Part shown: piece after piece, positions 1-48,781 of the stretch
Numbering within the stretch: the stretch's first letter is position 1
Layout of the letters: the number at the start of each line of letters is the position of its first letter
DNA from: Escherichia coli
GTDB taxonomy: Bacteria > Pseudomonadota > Gammaproteobacteria > Enterobacterales > Enterobacteriaceae
DNA: 64,000 bases
Assembly (NCBI RefSeq): GCF_011045215.1
Contig: NZ_CP049201.1
Direction: 5' to 3' (one strand)
Made by a program: the position numbers and the translations under genes
The notes under the pieces: model-generated
The model's database searches: none
What the model was told of the DNA's origin: nothing
What the model saw: the letters and a program-made list of their open reading frames with translations, nothing else

Positions 1-399
1 AGATACCGCCGTCAAGTTCGGGACGAATGCGCGTGAGGATCAGCATGGCAAAGGCCAGCAATAAAATGCCAGCGCCAGTAATACCCCAGCCGATGAGCAG
101 TGCTGCCGGGCTGGCAACTGCCGCCATATTTTGCGGCAGACTGAAAACACCCGCGCCCAGCATTGAGCTTAATACCAGCGCGGTGAGTGCGCTCAGTCCC
201 AGTTTCTTTTCCATCGATATCCAGTGATTAAAACGTGATAAGAAGAATAAATATTAGGGCAAAACGCATAAAAATGGAGTTTGCCACTGAAGCGCGGGAT
301 TTTACGAAGAGATGTGTCTGCATGCAATGGTCGCAGGGAAATTTGTGACTAAAAATGCGAAAGGCGGCATCAAGCCGCCTTATAGGAGTAACTGAATAG

Positions 400-12424: not shown

Positions 12425-12548
12425 CATTTTTTAACTGTTCTACCAAAATTTGCGCTATCTCAATTTGGGCCAGGAAAGCATAACTTAGACTTTCAAGGTT
12501 AATTATTTTCCTGGTTTATATTTGTGAAGCATAACGGTGGAGTTAGTG

Positions 12549-13244
12549 ATGCTGAAGCGTTTCTTTATTACCGGTACAGACACTTCTGTAGGGAAAACGG
12601 TGGTTTCCCGCGCATTGCTACAAGCGTTAGCCTCCCAGGGAAAAACGGTTGCGGGATATAAACCCGTAGCGAAGGGGAGCAAAGAGACACCCGAAGGGCT
12701 GCGTAATAAAGATGCCCTGGTGTTGCAGAGTGTTTCAACCATCGAACTGCCTTATGAAGCAGTTAATCCTATCGCGTTAAGCGAAGAAGAAAGTAGCGTG
12801 GCGCACAGTTGCCCAATCAATTACACCCTCATTTCAAACGGCCTGGCAAACCTGACCGAAAAAGTCGATCATGTCGTGGTAGAAGGGACTGGCGGCTGGC
12901 GCAGTCTGATGAATGATTTGCGTCCACTCTCTGAATGGGTGGTGCAGGAACAACTGCCGGTGTTGATGGTTGTCGGTATTCAGGAAGGTTGCATTAACCA
13001 TGCACTGCTAACAGCTCAGGCGATTGCCAACGACGGGCTGCCGCTCATTGGCTGGGTGGCTAACCGAATCAACCCAGGACTGGCGCATTATGCGGAAATC
13101 ATTGATGTGCTCGGTAAAAAACTTCCGGCACCGCTCATTGGTGAACTGCCTTATCTGCCGCGCGCCGAACAGCGTGAACTGGGGCAATACATCCGCTTAG
13201 CTATGCTGCGCAGTGTGCTGGCGGTAGATAGAGTCACGGTGTAA
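12549..13244 (+). CDS. bioD2: dethiobiotin synthetase paralogue BioD2 (YnfK)
   Basis: 231 aa; P-loop GTDTSVGKT characteristic of dethiobiotin synthetase. Confidence 0.88.
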
Positions 13245-14453
13245 CATCCGCGAGATTACCGACGCAATTACGCAGGCAATCAATAAACCGGGGAGTAGCT
13301 GATACTCCCCGGTCATTTCACATATCATCAACGTCGACATAATCGGTGCGTGCGTGGTTGCCGCCAACAGTGTCGCCATCCCGGTCAATCCGAGTAAAAG
13401 CGTAATTTCTTCGCCGTCAGGGAACCATAATCCCAGGCTACGACCATACAACATGCCAATGGCAAGACCGATAAATAGCGTCGGTGTAAAGACACCACCG
13501 GGCGCGCCGGAACCGCTACTCGCCAGCACGGCACACAGTTTACAAAGGAAGATCCCGGCAATGATCATTAACAGTGGCGGGGCGGTTAAAAAGGATTGTA
13601 CGGTGCTATAGCCGTTGCCCCACACTGCAGGTGTGAACAGGGAAAGCAGACCCACGATCAACCCGCCTAGTGCCAGTTGCCAGGGCGGTGCAAGTTTGAG
13701 ACTCACAAATCCACGATGACAGGCGTTCATTAACGTTAACAACAGTGGTCCGCACAGACCTGCCAGCACACCTGTACTGATAATCAGCGCATAGTCACGA
13801 GCCTGAACCGTCACTGAGAGTTGTACGCTGTAGAGTAACGCGTCGCTATGATTAATCAGATTGCTAACCAGCAATGCCACGACGGCGGAAATAATCACCG
13901 GGCCGAGAGAGGCCAACATCATAGTGCCAAACAGCACTTCGGCTATAAATAAACTGCCAGCAAGCGGGGCACGATAGGCCGCAGCCATTCCCGCCGCGGC
14001 CCCACAGGCGATCCATAATTTCCACTCCTGGCGTGGCGTAAAACGTTGGGCAAAACAGGAGGCGGCAAGGACAGCTAAAAGAATCATCGCACCTTCGCGA
14101 CCAATTGCACTGCCGCTGGTTACTACCAGCAGAGAGGCAAGCGATTTAACCAGGCTTGCTGCGTAATCAAACTGACCCTCGGTTTGCAACGCTTCCATAT
14201 AATCGGTCGGCGCATGAGGGCGTTGCTGGGTAAATTTCTGCCAGCCCATCAGCAACAAACCCGCCGCCAGTCCGCCGAGCGCCGGAGTTAGCAGCCGTCG
14301 CCAGGGGGAAAGGTTTGTCGCTGCATTGACCAGACTGCCGGAGTCATTATTGAGGAACAACCACTCCAGTAGCAGCATCGTATGACGAAACCCGGCAACG
14401 GCAAAGGCCGCGAGAATACCGACGACTGTTGCGATAAGCAGACGGCGGAACAT
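13197..14453 (-). CDS. clcB: voltage-gated ClC chloride channel ClcB
   Basis: 418-aa ClC fold with GREGA and GxFxP motifs; start at internal ATG ([10 protein letters not shown]...). Confidence 0.88.
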
Positions 14454-14646
14454 AGTGCGCAGATCCGGATAGGTGTGTAGATGATGCATGAGCAGAAATG
14501 GGCAATGAAACACGGGCGACTATTTTGCGGCAAAAGAGGCCAGCTGCAAAAGCAGTGCGTGCTTTAAGAGATAAAAAACGTGACACTGTAACCTATTATT
14601 GCCGAATTGCGCGTAATCGCCACTATCCGGCAATATTACGGTGATC

Positions 14647-42451: not shown

Positions 42452-42550
42452 GCGGTTAAGCTAACAATTGTAAAGAGCATAATAAATTACTAACGCGTAC
42501 GCAAAAACTATCATAATCTGTTAAGAGTGGTTACTTCGCCACACAGCTTA

Positions 42551-42577
42551 AACCCGCCGTCGAGCGGTTTTTTTGTA
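42551..42577. terminator. hairpin plus T-run upstream of the AT-rich operon
   Basis: aaacccgccgtcgagcggttttttt: bulged stem flanked by A-run and T-run, possibly bidirectional. Confidence 0.4.
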
Positions 42578-42672
42578 CCTGTAAAACTGGTGCAGTACAG
42601 TAAACACGCTGGTGGTCGTGAATACTGACTTTTTATCTTGCTGGCTTTTTAGACAAGAGTTATTGGTATGTC

Positions 42673-44169: not shown

Positions 44170-44385
44170 ATGAAATCCATGGATAAGTTAACAACGGGTG
44201 TCGCCTATGGCACCTCAGCAGGTAGTGCCGGGTACTGGTTTTTACAGTTGCTCGATAAAGTCACGCCCTCACAGTGGGCGGCAATAGGTGTGCTGGGTAG
44301 TCTGGTATTTGGCTTGCTGACGTATCTGACAAACCTTTATTTCAAGATTAAAGAAGATAAGCGTAAGGCTGCGAGAGGTGAATAA
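44170..44385 (+). CDS. phage holin
   Basis: 71-aa two-TM protein with charged C-terminus, directly upstream of lysozyme. Confidence 0.85.
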
Positions 44386-44882
44386 TGTCGCCATCATTAC
44401 GCAAGGCTGTTGCTGCTGCTATTGGTGGTGGGGCTGTTGCCATAGCGTCTGTGCTCATCACTGGTCCGAGTGGTGACGATGGCCTGGAAGGTGTCAGCTA
44501 CATACCATACAAAGATATCGTTGGCGTATGGACTGTATGTCACGGACACACCGGAAAAGACATCATGCTAGGTAAAACGTATACCGAAGCAGAATGCAAA
44601 GCCCTCCTGAATAAAGACCTTGCCACGGTCGCCAGACAAATTAACCCGTACATCAAAGTCGATATACCGGAAACAACGCGCGGCGCTCTTTACTCGTTCG
44701 TCTACAACGTGGGTGCTGGCAATTTCAGAACATCGACGCTTCTTCGCAAAATAAACCAGGGCGATATCAAAGGCGCATGTGACCAGCTACGTCGCTGGAC
44801 ATACGCTGGCGGTAAGCAATGGAAAGGCCTGATGACTCGTCGTGAGATTGAGCGTGAAGTCTGTTTGTGGGGGCAACAATGA
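44385..44882 (+). CDS. phage lysozyme (T4 lysozyme/GH24 family) with N-terminal signal-anchor
   Basis: 165 aa; hydrophobic N-terminus ([18 protein letters not shown]) then lysozyme core with catalytic E-D-T spacing; ATG overlaps holin stop. Confidence 0.88.
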
Positions 44883-45346
44883 GCAGAGTAACCGCGATTA
44901 TCTCCGCTCTGGTTATCTGCATCATCGTCTGCCTGTCGTGGGCGGTCAATCATTACCGTGATAACGCCATCGCCTACAAAGAACAGCGAGATAAAAAAGT
45001 CAGTGAGCTGAAGCAGGCGACCGCCACCATCGCTGACATGCAGCAGCGTCAGCGTGATGTTGCTGCGATCGATGCAAAATACACGAAGGAGTTAGCCGAT
45101 GCGAAAACTGAAAATGAAACTCTGCGCGCTGATGTTGCCGCTGGTCGTAAGCGCCTGCGGGTCAATGCCAGTTGCTCCGCAGCCGTGCGTGAAGCCACCG
45201 GACCCACCAGCATGGATAATGCAACCAGCCCCCGACTGGCAGACACCGCTGAACGGGATTATTTCATCCTCAGAGAACGGTTGATGACGATGCAGAAGCA
45301 ACTGGAAGGGGCGCAGGAATATATCCGCACCCAGCGCATTAAGTAG
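44879..45346 (+). CDS. Rz: i-spanin Rz
   Basis: 155 aa with N-terminal TM and coiled-coil periplasmic domain; overlaps lysozyme stop. Confidence 0.85.
45099..45284 (+). CDS. Rz1: o-spanin Rz1 lipoprotein, embedded in Rz
   Basis: 61 aa in +1 frame inside Rz; lipobox LVVSAC; proline-rich. Confidence 0.8.
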
Positions 45347-45367
45347 CTGGAGAAAAAACACGAATCT

Positions 45368-45730
45368 GTGGTTTTTACTGAGCGCGGTGTACACGGTGGA
45401 ACATATGGCGGGAAGTTTGTTGCTTATGATTATGCAGCATGGCTAAACCCCGGATTTAAATATGCAGCCTATAAAGTCCTGGATGACTACTTCACCGGAG
45501 AACTTCAGCATCGCAACAGCTTAAGTGCGCAGCTCAATATGAAGTGTCATGAGTTTGATCAGAAAAAAGATATGGCGAGCTTCTGTGGACAAGGGCTGGC
45601 GGCATGGCGCTATACGAAGCCAGTGTTGGTCGCTGAGATTAACTCCCTGGCTAACCAGCTGCAGATAACGATCCCCGGGCTGTCCGGTATTTGCCGGTAT
45701 GAAATTACCGGAAGGCGCGGTCGTTACTGA
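45368..45730 (+). CDS. hypothetical phage protein
   Basis: 120-aa ORF after the lysis cassette. Confidence 0.55.
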   Translation: MVFTERGVHGGTYGGKFVAYDYAAWLNPGFKYAAYKVLDDYFTGELQHRNSLSAQLNMKCHEFDQKKDMASFCGQGLAAWRYTKPVLVAEINSLANQLQITIPGLSGICRYEITGRRGRY

Positions 45731-46184
45731 GTAACAGCAGGCATTACAGCAGCCCTTCACTGAGGGGCTGCGATAATGTGAGGAATAAAAAACCGGCAGG
45801 GGAAATCCATTGAAGATTTGCCGGTGGCAAAAGATGGCCATGCTTTTAACCTTAGTAGCAGAGTTACGGAGTTCAACAACGACCGTCGCCGTTATCTTGC
45901 TGAAAGGCGTTTCAATGATTTTCATCAATTTATTCATCAGCAATGGTGATAATCACTCTCATTTTGGCGGGTCCTTCCGGTGGGGTGGCCTGCCACGGGG
46001 CGGGAGCGTCGCGGAAAAAGGCTAGTTTTTGAAATTTCATTCGTCATCACCACCACTGTAATAGATTGATATTACAGTGGTTTTATTTTTATGGTGTCGA
46101 TTTTGATTGTTTTTTTGTTCACCACTAACACCGTTTGCCTAAAGTTGTTCGCAAGATGCATGTTTAAAACATTCTGGAGCGGGT

Positions 46185-46679
46185 ATGGATCGAGAGTTAA
46201 AAAATCTGACGCTGAATATCAGTCAACTGGCGGCACTGTCAGGTGTACATCGCCAGACTGCTGCGGCAAGGCTGCAAAATCTACCCGTTGCAGGGGGGCA
46301 TGAAAGCAACCTCAAGCTTTATCGGGTGGTTGATATTGTGTCGGCATTTCTGGCATTGCCACCGCCGGTTGCAGAAGGCGAAATGGACGCGCATGAGCGC
46401 AAAGCCTGGTATCAGTCTGAACGTGAGCGTCTTAAGTTCGAACAGGAAACGGCACAACTCATTCCGGCCAGTGATGTCAGACGGGAGTTTGCCATCTGGG
46501 CAAAAGCGGTCGTGCAGGTGCTGGAGACATTACCGGATATTCTGGAACGTGACTGCGGTCTGCAGCCTGCCGCTGTGAGCCGTGTTCAGTCCATTATTGA
46601 TGATCTGCGCGATCAGATAGCCCTGCGGGTGACTGAAGCAGGTGCGGATGATGAGGAGGAATTACAGCAGGAGGAGTAA
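46185..46679 (+). CDS. terminase small subunit
   Basis: 164 aa with N-terminal HTH-like segment (LNISQLAALSGVHRQTAAARL) and acidic C-terminus; directly precedes large terminase. Confidence 0.8.
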   Translation: MDRELKNLTLNISQLAALSGVHRQTAAARLQNLPVAGGHESNLKLYRVVDIVSAFLALPPPVAEGEMDAHERKAWYQSERERLKFEQETAQLIPASDVRREFAIWAKAVVQVLETLPDILERDCGLQPAAVSRVQSIIDDLRDQIALRVTEAGADDEEELQQEE

Positions 46680-48781
46680 TGCTGAATCAGGAAACCGCAA
46701 AGGCAGCACGAACCGATTCAGGTTATATCCTTCGCGCACCGAGACGAATGCGGGTTGCTGATGCCGTTGCTCAGTATATGCGGGTGCCCATGGGGGCAGG
46801 GAACTCAGTCCCGTGGGATCCGCTGGTGGCACCGTATGTTATTGAGCCGATGAACTGCCTGGCCTCGCGTGAATACGACGCAGTGATATTTGTTGGCCCG
46901 GCACGAACCGGCAAGACTATCGGCCTGATTGACGGCTGGGTGATTTACAACGTGATTTGCGATCCTGCTGATATGCTGATCATTCAGATGACGGAGGAAA
47001 AAGCCCGCGAACACTCCAAAAAACGACTCGCCAGAACGTTTCGCGTCAGCCCGGAAGTGGTCAGTCGCCTGAGTCCGAACAAAAATGACAACAACGTTTA
47101 TGACAGAACATTCCTTGCTGGTAACTACCTGAAAATCGGCTGGCCGTCAGTCAATATCATGTCCTCATCAGATTATAAATGCGTCGCGCTGACGGATTAT
47201 GACCGTTTTCCGGAAGATATTGATGGCGAGGGGGATGCTTTCTCTCTTGCCTCAAAACGTACCACCACATTTATGTCCAGCGGTATGACGCTGGTGGAGA
47301 GTTCCCCCGGCAGGGATGTGAAGGATGTGAAATGGCGACGGACTTCACCGCATGAGGCTCCACCAACCACGGGGATCCTGTCGCTCTATAACCGTGGTGA
47401 TCGCCGTCGCTGGTACTGGCCCTGTCCACACTGTGGTGAGTATTTTCAGCCCTGCGGCGATGTGGTTGCTGGTTTCCGTGATATTGCCGATCCCGTGCTG
47501 GCAAGTGAGGCGGCTTATATTCAGTGTCCTTCCTGTTCAGGACGGATTATGCCTGAACAAAAACGTGAGCTGAACGGACGTGGGGTCTGGTTGCGGGATG
47601 GTGAATCCATCAATGCGGATGGCAGTCGTTATGGTGATCCCCGACGCTCACGTATTGCGTCATTCTGGATGGAGGGTCCGGCAGCTGCTTACCAGACACT
47701 CTCGCAACTCGTTTACAAACTGCTTACTGCAGAACAGGAATACGAGACAACCGGAAGTGAAGAAACACTCAAGACGGTTATCAATACCGACTGGGGATTA
47801 CCTTATCTTCCCCGCGCCAGCATGGAGCAACGAAAAAGTGAACTGCTTGAGCAGCGGGCAGAGCCAGTTCCTTCCCGCAGTGTGCCGGATGGCGTTAATT
47901 TCCTTGTGGCGACAGTGGATGTGCAGGCGGGACGTCATCGCCGTTTTGTGGTTCAGGTAACGGGCTATGGCAGCCGTGGCGAACGCTGGATTATTGATCG
48001 TTACAACATCACGCAGTCATTGCGCGGTGACAGCGACGGGGAGAGCCAGCGAATTGATCCGGCCAGCTATCCGGAAGACTGGGATGTCCTGCTGACGGAT
48101 GTTTTTCATAAAAGCTGGCCGCTGGCCTCCGATCCTTCTCAACAAATGCGACTGATGGCAATGGCGGTGGACTCCGGCGGTGAAGACGGGGTCACTGATA
48201 ATGCCTATAAATTCTGGCGTCGTTGCCGTCGTGATGGCCTTGGTAAACGTATTTACCTGTTTAAGGGCGACAGCATCCGGCGCGCAAAACTGATCACCCG
48301 TACATTCCCTGATAACACCGGACGAACGGGCCGACGGGCGCAGGCCGCAGGTGATGTGCCGCTCTGGCTTCTTCAGACGGATGCACTGAAAGACCGGGTG
48401 AATAACGCGTTATGGCGTGACTCGCCAGGTCCCGGCTATGTGCATTTCCCTGACTGGCTGGGGAGCTGGTTTTACGACGAACTGACGTATGAAGAGCGGA
48501 GCAGTGACGGGAAATGGAGTAAGCCGGGTCGCGGTGCCAACGAAGCTTTTGACCTGATGGTGTATGCCGAGGCTCTGGTCATTCTGCATGGATACGAAAA
48601 GATCCGCTGGCCGGATGCACCGGAGTGGGCGAGCCGGGAAACCTGGCTGGAGTGTGTCCCGGACAGTACCGAACCGTCATCCTCACCGGAACCGGTATCC
48701 ACGCCTGTTAAAAAACAAAAACGGAAGAAAACAGTAACTGACGATGTTAACCCCTGGCTGACTTCCGGAGGATGGTTATGA
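46679..48781 (+). CDS. terminase large subunit (lambda gpA family)
   Basis: 700 aa; Walker A-like VGPARTGKT; ATG overlaps small-subunit stop. Confidence 0.9.
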   Translation: MLNQETAKAARTDSGYILRAPRRMRVADAVAQYMRVPMGAGNSVPWDPLVAPYVIEPMNCLASREYDAVIFVGPARTGKTIGLIDGWVIYNVICDPADMLIIQMTEEKAREHSKKRLARTFRVSPEVVSRLSPNKNDNNVYDRTFLAGNYLKIGWPSVNIMSSSDYKCVALTDYDRFPEDIDGEGDAFSLASKRTTTFMSSGMTLVESSPGRDVKDVKWRRTSPHEAPPTTGILSLYNRGDRRRWYWPCPHCGEYFQPCGDVVAGFRDIADPVLASEAAYIQCPSCSGRIMPEQKRELNGRGVWLRDGESINADGSRYGDPRRSRIASFWMEGPAAAYQTLSQLVYKLLTAEQEYETTGSEETLKTVINTDWGLPYLPRASMEQRKSELLEQRAEPVPSRSVPDGVNFLVATVDVQAGRHRRFVVQVTGYGSRGERWIIDRYNITQSLRGDSDGESQRIDPASYPEDWDVLLTDVFHKSWPLASDPSQQMRLMAMAVDSGGEDGVTDNAYKFWRRCRRDGLGKRIYLFKGDSIRRAKLITRTFPDNTGRTGRRAQAAGDVPLWLLQTDALKDRVNNALWRDSPGPGYVHFPDWLGSWFYDELTYEERSSDGKWSKPGRGANEAFDLMVYAEALVILHGYEKIRWPDAPEWASRETWLECVPDSTEPSSSPEPVSTPVKKQKRKKTVTDDVNPWLTSGGWL

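Follow-up and report, generated by a model that had tools for sequence, protein, structure and literature searches.

An IHF bending site as the most likely core of a palindrome in the cosB region of a lambda-like Escherichia coli prophage

Why should a long, perfect palindrome stand just before the terminase genes of a prophage? The question is raised by a 64,000-nt stretch of Escherichia coli DNA (the window), in which a preliminary description had marked a perfect hairpin with an 11-bp stem and a 6-nt loop, followed by a T-rich tract, at 46053-46094. It placed this element where cos or packaging signals and late-transcript terminators are both to be expected. We hypothesize, by analogy with lambda, that the functional core of the palindrome is an I1-type IHF bending site of cosB, a reading to which we give a probability of about 0.6. 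A transcription terminator, or an operator for the small terminase subunit (TerS), appears less likely.

The palindrome and the cos site around it

The palindrome is present as first described, with ccactgtaata-gattga-tattacagtgg spanning 46053-46080 and ttttatttttat directly 3' of it, but its stem is in fact 12 bp long. A repeat finder extends the perfect plus-strand arms to 46052-46063 (ACCACTGTAATA) and 46070-46081 (TATTACAGTGGT), with the 6-nt spacer GATTGA between them and TTTTATTTTTAT 3' of the right arm (46081/2-46092). Only two loci in the window, 13287 and 46052, carry a perfect palindrome whose arms reach 11 bp or more around a loop of 3-10 nt, whereas first-order Markov simulations predict 0.07 per 64-kb window by chance, so the symmetry at 46052 is not due to chance. 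As RNA, the hairpin by itself folds at -16.7 kcal/mol and the 61-nt region at -21.7 kcal/mol (z = -5.2 relative to shuffles). The minus strand folds nearly as well (-19.7 kcal/mol), as is expected of a DNA palindrome. The other locus, a GC-rich palindrome at 13287-13313 (ACCGGGGAGTA-GCTGA-TACTCCCCGGT), sits where two convergent open reading frames meet (12537-13244 on the plus strand and 13197-14513 on the minus strand) and is probably a bidirectional terminator.

Upstream of the palindrome are genes for a holin (44170-44385), a lysozyme (44385-44882) and Rz/Rz1, followed by a small gene with an ORF11CD3 domain (45368-45730); downstream come terS and terL, then a gpW-like gene and a portal gene. 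The region, a member of the mEp460 group, is 99.8% identical to phage phi458. The large subunit gene terL (46679-48781, plus strand) is of the gpA type, with the Pfam domains GpA_ATPase and GpA_nuclease, and terS (46185-46679, plus strand) encodes a small subunit of the DUF1441 family (Pfam PF07278, E = 2.7e-41) whose homologues in phi458 and mEp460 are annotated as terminase small subunits. The same family of small terminase is common to Gifsy-2, Fels-1, mEp213, VT1-Sakai, CP-1639, Chris1, Kp4865-4 and cdtI.

Comparison with a lambdoid cos, using the right end of lambda (ACGGGTCCTTTCCGG...TTACG|GGGCGG), aligns both cosQ and a CG-flanked cosN to the left of the palindrome. The cosQ-like heptamer GGGTCCT lies at 45969-45975 on the plus strand and is kept in nearly all related loci; cosQ is known as a highly conserved 7-bp site (PMC4669245). 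Its distance to the nick is 29 nt in the window versus 30 nt in lambda. Homology with lambda and the termini of the cdtI and Tritos records place cosN at 45996-46011, where CG dinucleotides flank GGGCGGGAGCGT on either side, and suggest that 45998-46009 forms a 12-nt 5' cohesive end. The record of phage cdtI ends on the base equivalent to 45997 and begins with GGGCGGGAGCGTCGCGG, and the record of the linear phage Tritos has the same start base as cdtI (45998). The window's cohesive end differs from that of lambda (GGGCGGCGACCT) at four bases in the right half, 7, 8, 9 and 11, and the flanking CG dinucleotides are the same in both (a comparison supported by PMC4669245). A literature search found no experimental mapping of the GGGCGGGAGCGT cohesive end or of the mEp460 cos site.

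Counted from the left cohesive end, the palindrome occupies the positions 55-84 bp to the right of the cleavage site. On this evidence we place it inside the cosB of a lambda-like prophage of the mEp460/phi458 type, which bears out the earlier suggestion of a cos or packaging signal. A GC-rich stretch that had been pointed out about 80 bp upstream also exists and corresponds to cosQ-cosN (45969-46011), since it is there that cosQ and the CG-flanked cosN align with lambda. Immediately to the right of cosN, a spacer with A5/T5 tracts (GGAAAAAGGCTAGTTTTTGAAATTT, 46013-46037) is invariant in 62 relatives. The I2 element of lambda spans bp 18-50 and contains poly-dA tracts (PMC4856287), and by position the spacer in the window would be its analogue, with a function that we would expect to be similar.

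The cohesive end itself is not uniform among relatives. Bases 11-12 (46008-46009) are polymorphic (GCGT, GCGG, GCAG and GCAT), so that phages with nearly the same terminase would have mismatching sticky ends; natural variation in bp 7-12 of cosN has already been published, and this polymorphism fits it. Three database records are irregular at cos: that of mEp460_4F5 (L381, 1-20) lacks TCG from GGGAGCGTCGCGG exactly at cos, that of Ayreon (L378, about 100-165) is joined at cos to unrelated, terS-internal sequence, and that of mEp460_ev081 (L379, about 190-230) has a short duplication of GGCTAGTTTTTGAAATT. All three irregularities probably arose in assembly, at the physical ends of the genomes. 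At the other side of the region, just 5' of terS, AAAGTTGTTCGCAAGATGCATGTTTAAA (46141-46168) hardly varies between three cosB types with different I1 regions, and it holds an imperfect dyad centred on ATGCAT; this segment may serve as an additional TerS site or as a signal for translation.

Conservation of the core, the T tract and the flanking repeats

The spacer and the inner arm bases of the palindrome together make up TATCAATCTATTA on the minus strand (46071-46059, bp 62-74 from the left end), which matches the IHF core consensus WATCAANNNNTTR perfectly. Both this consensus, WATCAR-N4-TTR, and the lambda H' core used for comparison were taken from PMC2709558. The window holds seven perfect matches where 2.5 are expected, so a consensus match alone is weak evidence, and in our reading of the sequences the case for an IHF site is carried by the pattern of conservation instead. 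Next to the core stands the T tract TTTATTTTTAT (46082-46092, plus strand), which on the minus strand is an A/T-rich element 5' of the core and 9 bp away from it. In lambda, the H' site has an A-tract at a similar spacing from its core, and the layout of core and A-rich tract in the window resembles that site. The core lies between cosN and terS, less than about 100 bp from the nick, with terS beginning at bp 188; its position and orientation are kept in related cos sites while the surrounding bases diverge.

This last point holds across cosB types. A core with zero or one mismatch is found in the same orientation at bp 61-64 in the window, PhiR40_1, CP-1639, mEp213, Fels-1, Kp4865-4 and cdtI. 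It also occurs in Chris1 and VT1-Sakai, where presence and not offset was scored, and Gifsy-2 has a one-mismatch core in the opposite orientation. A 10-way alignment of cosB sequences shows conservation of cosN, the I2-like GGC..TTTTT, (CAY)n, the TTG of the core, ATGTCGA/ATGATGA and TGTTCAYCAYC; the core TTG is invariant and the palindrome arms are not conserved. The segments equivalent to the palindrome in PhiR40, the sister type L081, cdtI and lambda fold at only -0.4 to -3.3 kcal/mol, and a T-rich tract is nevertheless found at the same place in all four.

The same contrast appears among close relatives. Sampling of the window's cosB type from IMG/VR gave about 190 loci, which reduce to 61 different haplotypes of 70 nt, from phages whose TerS proteins are 99-100% identical. 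The bases that IHF would specify (TAA at 46059-61 and TTGATA at 46066-71) are invariant or nearly so in these haplotypes, as are the T tract at 46081-46090 and the flanking CAYCAY and GTGTCGA blocks. Variation is concentrated at 46054-56, 46063-64, 46074, 46076-80 and 46091-93, and the most variable sites of all, 46063 and 46064 with 3-4 alleles each, both fall among the four N positions that the core leaves unspecified. Only a minority of sequences have the perfect palindrome (8 of 62 in a first sample). Hairpin energies in the 61 haplotypes run from -16.7 to 0 kcal/mol (median -10.7), and about 85% of haplotypes keep a hairpin of -6 kcal/mol or stronger. Among viable, plaque-forming relatives, mEp460, Ayreon, 569R4 and mEp460_4F5 have imperfect palindromes and intact cores. 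A core and a T tract that stay fixed while the arms vary indicate that selection acts on the core and the A/T tract, and that the dyad symmetry is not required. Perfect symmetry is a property of this haplotype and not the conserved feature.

On both sides of the core are repeats that may be sites for TerS. The first, a (CAY)n repeat (TTCGTCATCACCACCAC, 46040-46056, plus strand), overlaps the outer end of the left arm and is a candidate R3 by analogy with R3 of lambda. Plus-strand CAYCAY is found at bp 44-54 in nine of ten DUF1441-type cosBs, and 46039-46053 is nearly invariant within the window's type. A candidate R2 (ATGGTGTCGATT, 46091-46102, minus strand) combines an inverted CAYCAY, present at bp 94-99 in the window, VT1-Sakai, Fels-1 and Kp4865-4, with the block ATGTCGA/ATGATGA, which nine of ten cosBs keep; it pairs with 46041-46049 in both RNA and DNA folds. 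The third, a candidate R1 in direct orientation (GTTCACCACTAAC, 46117-46129, plus strand), contains the block TGTTCAYCAYC that is conserved at bp ~117-130 in DUF1441 cosBs, with plus-strand CAYCAY at bp 120-127. Together, the CAYCAY copies at bp 44-54 (plus), 94-99 (minus) and 120-127 (plus) form the densest such cluster in the window, although the copy in R2 is imperfect. The order R3-I1-R2-R1 with R2 inverted has been described for lambda, 21, phi80 and Gifsy-1 (PMC9026076, PMC4669245), and the arrangement in the window reproduces it; by that analogy we infer the R identities of the candidate sites. The number of triplets in the candidate R3 and the choice of C or T vary between cosB types (the window and L370-L376), with CATCATCATCAT in Fels-1, VT1-Sakai, mEp213, Chris1 and Kp4865-4 and CATCACCACCAC in the window (46045-46056).

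TerS itself differs among the three sister cosB types (the window, L005 and L081) almost only in its N-terminal 60 residues (46185-46370), which presumably form the DNA-binding domain; the C-terminal 100 residues are essentially identical. This N-terminal divergence between cosB types fits co-variation of the DNA-binding domain with its sites, and suggests that the recognition domain and cosB are either exchanged as a module or diverging rapidly together. An AF2 model of the N-terminus has the order strand-helix-helix-wing-strand-helix, which is winged-helix-like, and Foldseek returned weak matches of this model to MerR-type, Rpp and excisionase structures (E of at least 0.03). A search by sequence found no relative of TerS in the PDB. 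The model suggests that TerS may carry a winged helix like that of gpNu1.

Mutation, termination and TerS binding as alternative explanations

The bases around the core are unusually variable among close relatives, and this local hypervariability is the sole part of our results that a specialist might find surprising. Within the window's type, the ~40-bp stretch 46053-46093 has a diversity of 0.07-0.11 versus 0.023 at four-fold sites of terS, which makes it 3-5 times more polymorphic than four-fold degenerate sites, and several of its sites have 3-4 alleles; the adjacent non-coding DNA has a diversity of 0.01-0.02. Pairs of sequences with zero or one difference in about 680 flanking bases nevertheless differ at about 3.2 of 43 positions in the stretch. 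An independent check on 5,426 complete E. coli genomes agrees: 893 of them carry this cosB, and its 131-nt segment reaches at least 99% identity to the window in none (90-95% in 575 of 893), whereas the adjacent 131 nt of terS is at least 99% identical in 767 of 886.

One explanation for this pattern is that the dyad has no function of its own. It would be a quasi-palindrome in a weakly constrained spacer, made, perfected and eroded by hairpin-templated (template-switch) mutation, and the spacer would be a local mutational hot spot. This idea is compatible with an IHF site, and we consider it possible but short of probable. Template-switch hot spots at quasi-palindromes are known in E. coli, and the stretch shares with them a short imperfect inverted repeat, a raised density of substitutions and the perfecting of mismatches in either arm. 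At the pair 46054:46079, for example, T.G is found in 30 haplotypes, C:G in 10 and T:A in 12, so that the mismatch has been perfected both ways; the pair 46055:46092 is A:T in 47 and G:C in 7. The stretch differs from those hot spots in that its evidence consists of population data, and in that polymorphism is about as high in a sister cosB that has no strong palindrome.

A similar excess of diversity is seen in the PhiR40-type cosB, where a strong palindrome is lacking (0.07-0.09 versus 0.020), and a smaller one in the lambda-type cosB (0.02-0.06 versus 0.026, in a subset of a control that mixed several cosB types). Relaxed constraint in the spacer, together with recombination, may therefore suffice. 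The palindromic partner sites are also no more strongly associated than other pairs of sites in a linkage test (p = 0.19), and the counts of pair states exceed their shuffle controls in a comparison that ignores the relatedness of the sequences; for these reasons we set covariation aside as proof of a hairpin. In lambda IHF is accessory, with a yield of about 30% in IHF- cells (PMC4856287), and relaxed constraint in a spacer whose protein is accessory may explain much of the polymorphism.

A further reading holds that the I1 spacer is a genuine hot spot of sequence change, either through hairpin-templated switching or through selection on a plus-strand hairpin of RNA or single-stranded DNA or on an extruded cruciform. 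A selected structure could fold R3 onto R2 independently of IHF, or could shield the terminase genes in lysogens as a terminator. We think this reading rather doubtful. Two observations count against the IHF explanation, which does not account for the first of them: the strong, statistically unexpected palindrome occurs only in this type among those compared, and the ~85% of haplotypes that retain an appreciable hairpin do so through G.U-type changes that favour the plus strand.

The element shares with Rho-independent terminators a 12-pair stem, a 6-nt loop and a U-rich run that directly follows the stable stem-loop on the sense strand of the late operon. A terminator at this place would keep stray transcription of the lysis/moron region from reaching terS and terL in a lysogen, Q-modified polymerase would read through it, and it could coexist with an IHF site. 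A terminator scan does pick out the palindrome (12 pairs, 4 of them G-C, a 6-nt loop and the tail TTTATTTTTA), and beyond the low folding energy and z-score given above, the tail UUUAUUUUUAU is found on the plus strand only. Most haplotypes keep the hairpin, and its plus-strand version is the more stable in 47 of 61, because the substitutions are mostly G.U-compatible.

However, the scan gives three terminator-like matches in 3 kb where 3.2 are expected, the stem is AT-rich, and the late operon must be transcribed through cos into the terminase genes. The structure is not maintained in homologous loci: in 7 of the 61 haplotypes, whose TerS is nearly the same, the hairpin is no stronger than -4 kcal/mol, and the absence of excess association between partner positions (p = 0.19) applies here as well. 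The tract in turn is conserved in PhiR40, L081, cdtI and lambda, where there is no stable hairpin, so that it does not depend on one. Rfam gave no match at E <= 1 for 45300-46700. The earlier suggestion of a late-transcript terminator is not supported as the main function, since the T tract is kept without the hairpin, and many phages that share nearly the same terminase, plaque-forming ones included, have a dyad that is imperfect or missing. We regard termination as unlikely, and the proposal is probably wrong or at most describes a secondary role. A hairpin that does look like a strong terminator, possibly tR'-like, is found elsewhere, upstream of the late region (CCGCCGTCGAGCGG followed by T7, 42545-42601); just past it, CTGTAAAACTGGTGCAGTACAG contains the dyad CTGTA-N12-TACAG, which bears a weak likeness to the cosB palindrome (3 mismatches).

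Least well supported of the fuller alternatives is that the arms themselves are TerS sites, R3 and R2 side by side in an operator-like palindrome bound by a TerS dimer, with no bend needed. The left arm (bp 55-66) does sit where R3 of lambda lies, TerS there contacting bp 55-63 (PMC9026076); a partial third copy, CACCACT, is found at 46120-46126, and the palindrome is specific to one variant of the TerS DNA-binding domain. Bases contacted by TerS should not vary among phages with the same TerS, but the outer arm bases (46054-56 and 46077-80) are among the most variable of the module despite TerS being 99-100% identical, and some haplotypes lack any symmetry. The conserved inner bases coincide with the IHF core, and the blocks conserved in the family are the flanking CAYCAY and ATGTCGA, not the arms. 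We consider such an operator improbable.

The remaining candidates can be dismissed briefly. A LexA (SOS) box needs CTGT-N8-ACAG, and the CTGT and ACAG of the arms are 14 nt apart; a reused prophage operator finds no other copy of the half-site in the window at one mismatch or fewer, the 3-mismatch likeness at 42578 being weak; a sigma-70 promoter, TTGATA-18-TATGGT (46066-46095), matches at 9 of 12 positions, which is chance frequency, and its -10 hexamer is a variable spot (TATGGT, TGTAGT, TGCAGT and others); and a small open reading frame of 70 aa from the ATG at 46091 has a start codon that is not conserved among haplotypes.

A cosB bending site compared with known systems

We conclude that the element is most likely, by analogy, an IHF site of the I1 type, belonging to the cosB of a lambda-like phage with an uncharacterised DUF1441 TerS. 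Hypothetically, it would work as its lambda counterpart does. IHF would bend the DNA sharply at 46059-46090, and the bend would bring together the inverted TerS sites R3 (~46040-46056) and R2 (~46091-46102). A winged-helix dimer of TerS could then dock on R3 and R2, with R1 (~46117-46129) assisting, and TerL, positioned by the bound TerS, would nick cosN some 55 bp further left. On this model, what resembles a terminator tail, the T tract, would be the A/T-rich element that accompanies strong IHF sites.

The likeness to I1 of lambda extends to most of the layout. Both lie to the right of cosN and upstream of the small-terminase gene, and in both a T-rich tract comes after an IHF-consensus core of the same strand. 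Inverted repeats stand on either side, and a third repeat, in direct orientation, lies further downstream (R3-I1-R2-R1), the repeats of the window being candidates; cosQ and cosN are homologous in the two phages (PMC9026076, PMC4669245 and PMC4856287 for lambda). The two also differ. The window's TerS belongs to DUF1441 and not to Pfam Phage_Nu1, its core is perfect where that of lambda has, by our reading, two mismatches, and it lies at bp 62-74 versus about 74-86 in lambda, or ~12 bp closer to cosN. Its candidate R sites consist of CAY triplets, where lambda has CGTTTCC. Finally, the core of the window is embedded in a perfect 12-bp palindrome that lambda lacks.

The RIP/BIME-1 elements of E. 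coli consist of an IHF site flanked by inverted REP palindromic units. The element in the window has the same general arrangement, but it has no sequence similarity to REP and is single-copy within a phage cos site.

If the spacer is a true hot spot, then dyad symmetry would have a role beyond the IHF consensus, and if the elevated polymorphism is mutational, the stretch would be a natural quasi-palindrome hot spot in a phage control region. Under the IHF reading that we prefer, the case illustrates that a textbook-like hairpin with a T run can be a protein-bending site instead of a terminator. The analysis locates cos in a prophage group that is very common in E. coli (893 of 5,426 complete genomes), and for terminases with a small subunit still classed as DUF1441 it provides an R3-I1-R2-R1 map that can be tested. 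Such a map may be of use in the annotation of genome ends, in cos-based tools for packaging and transduction, and in predicting which prophages and satellites share packaging machinery.
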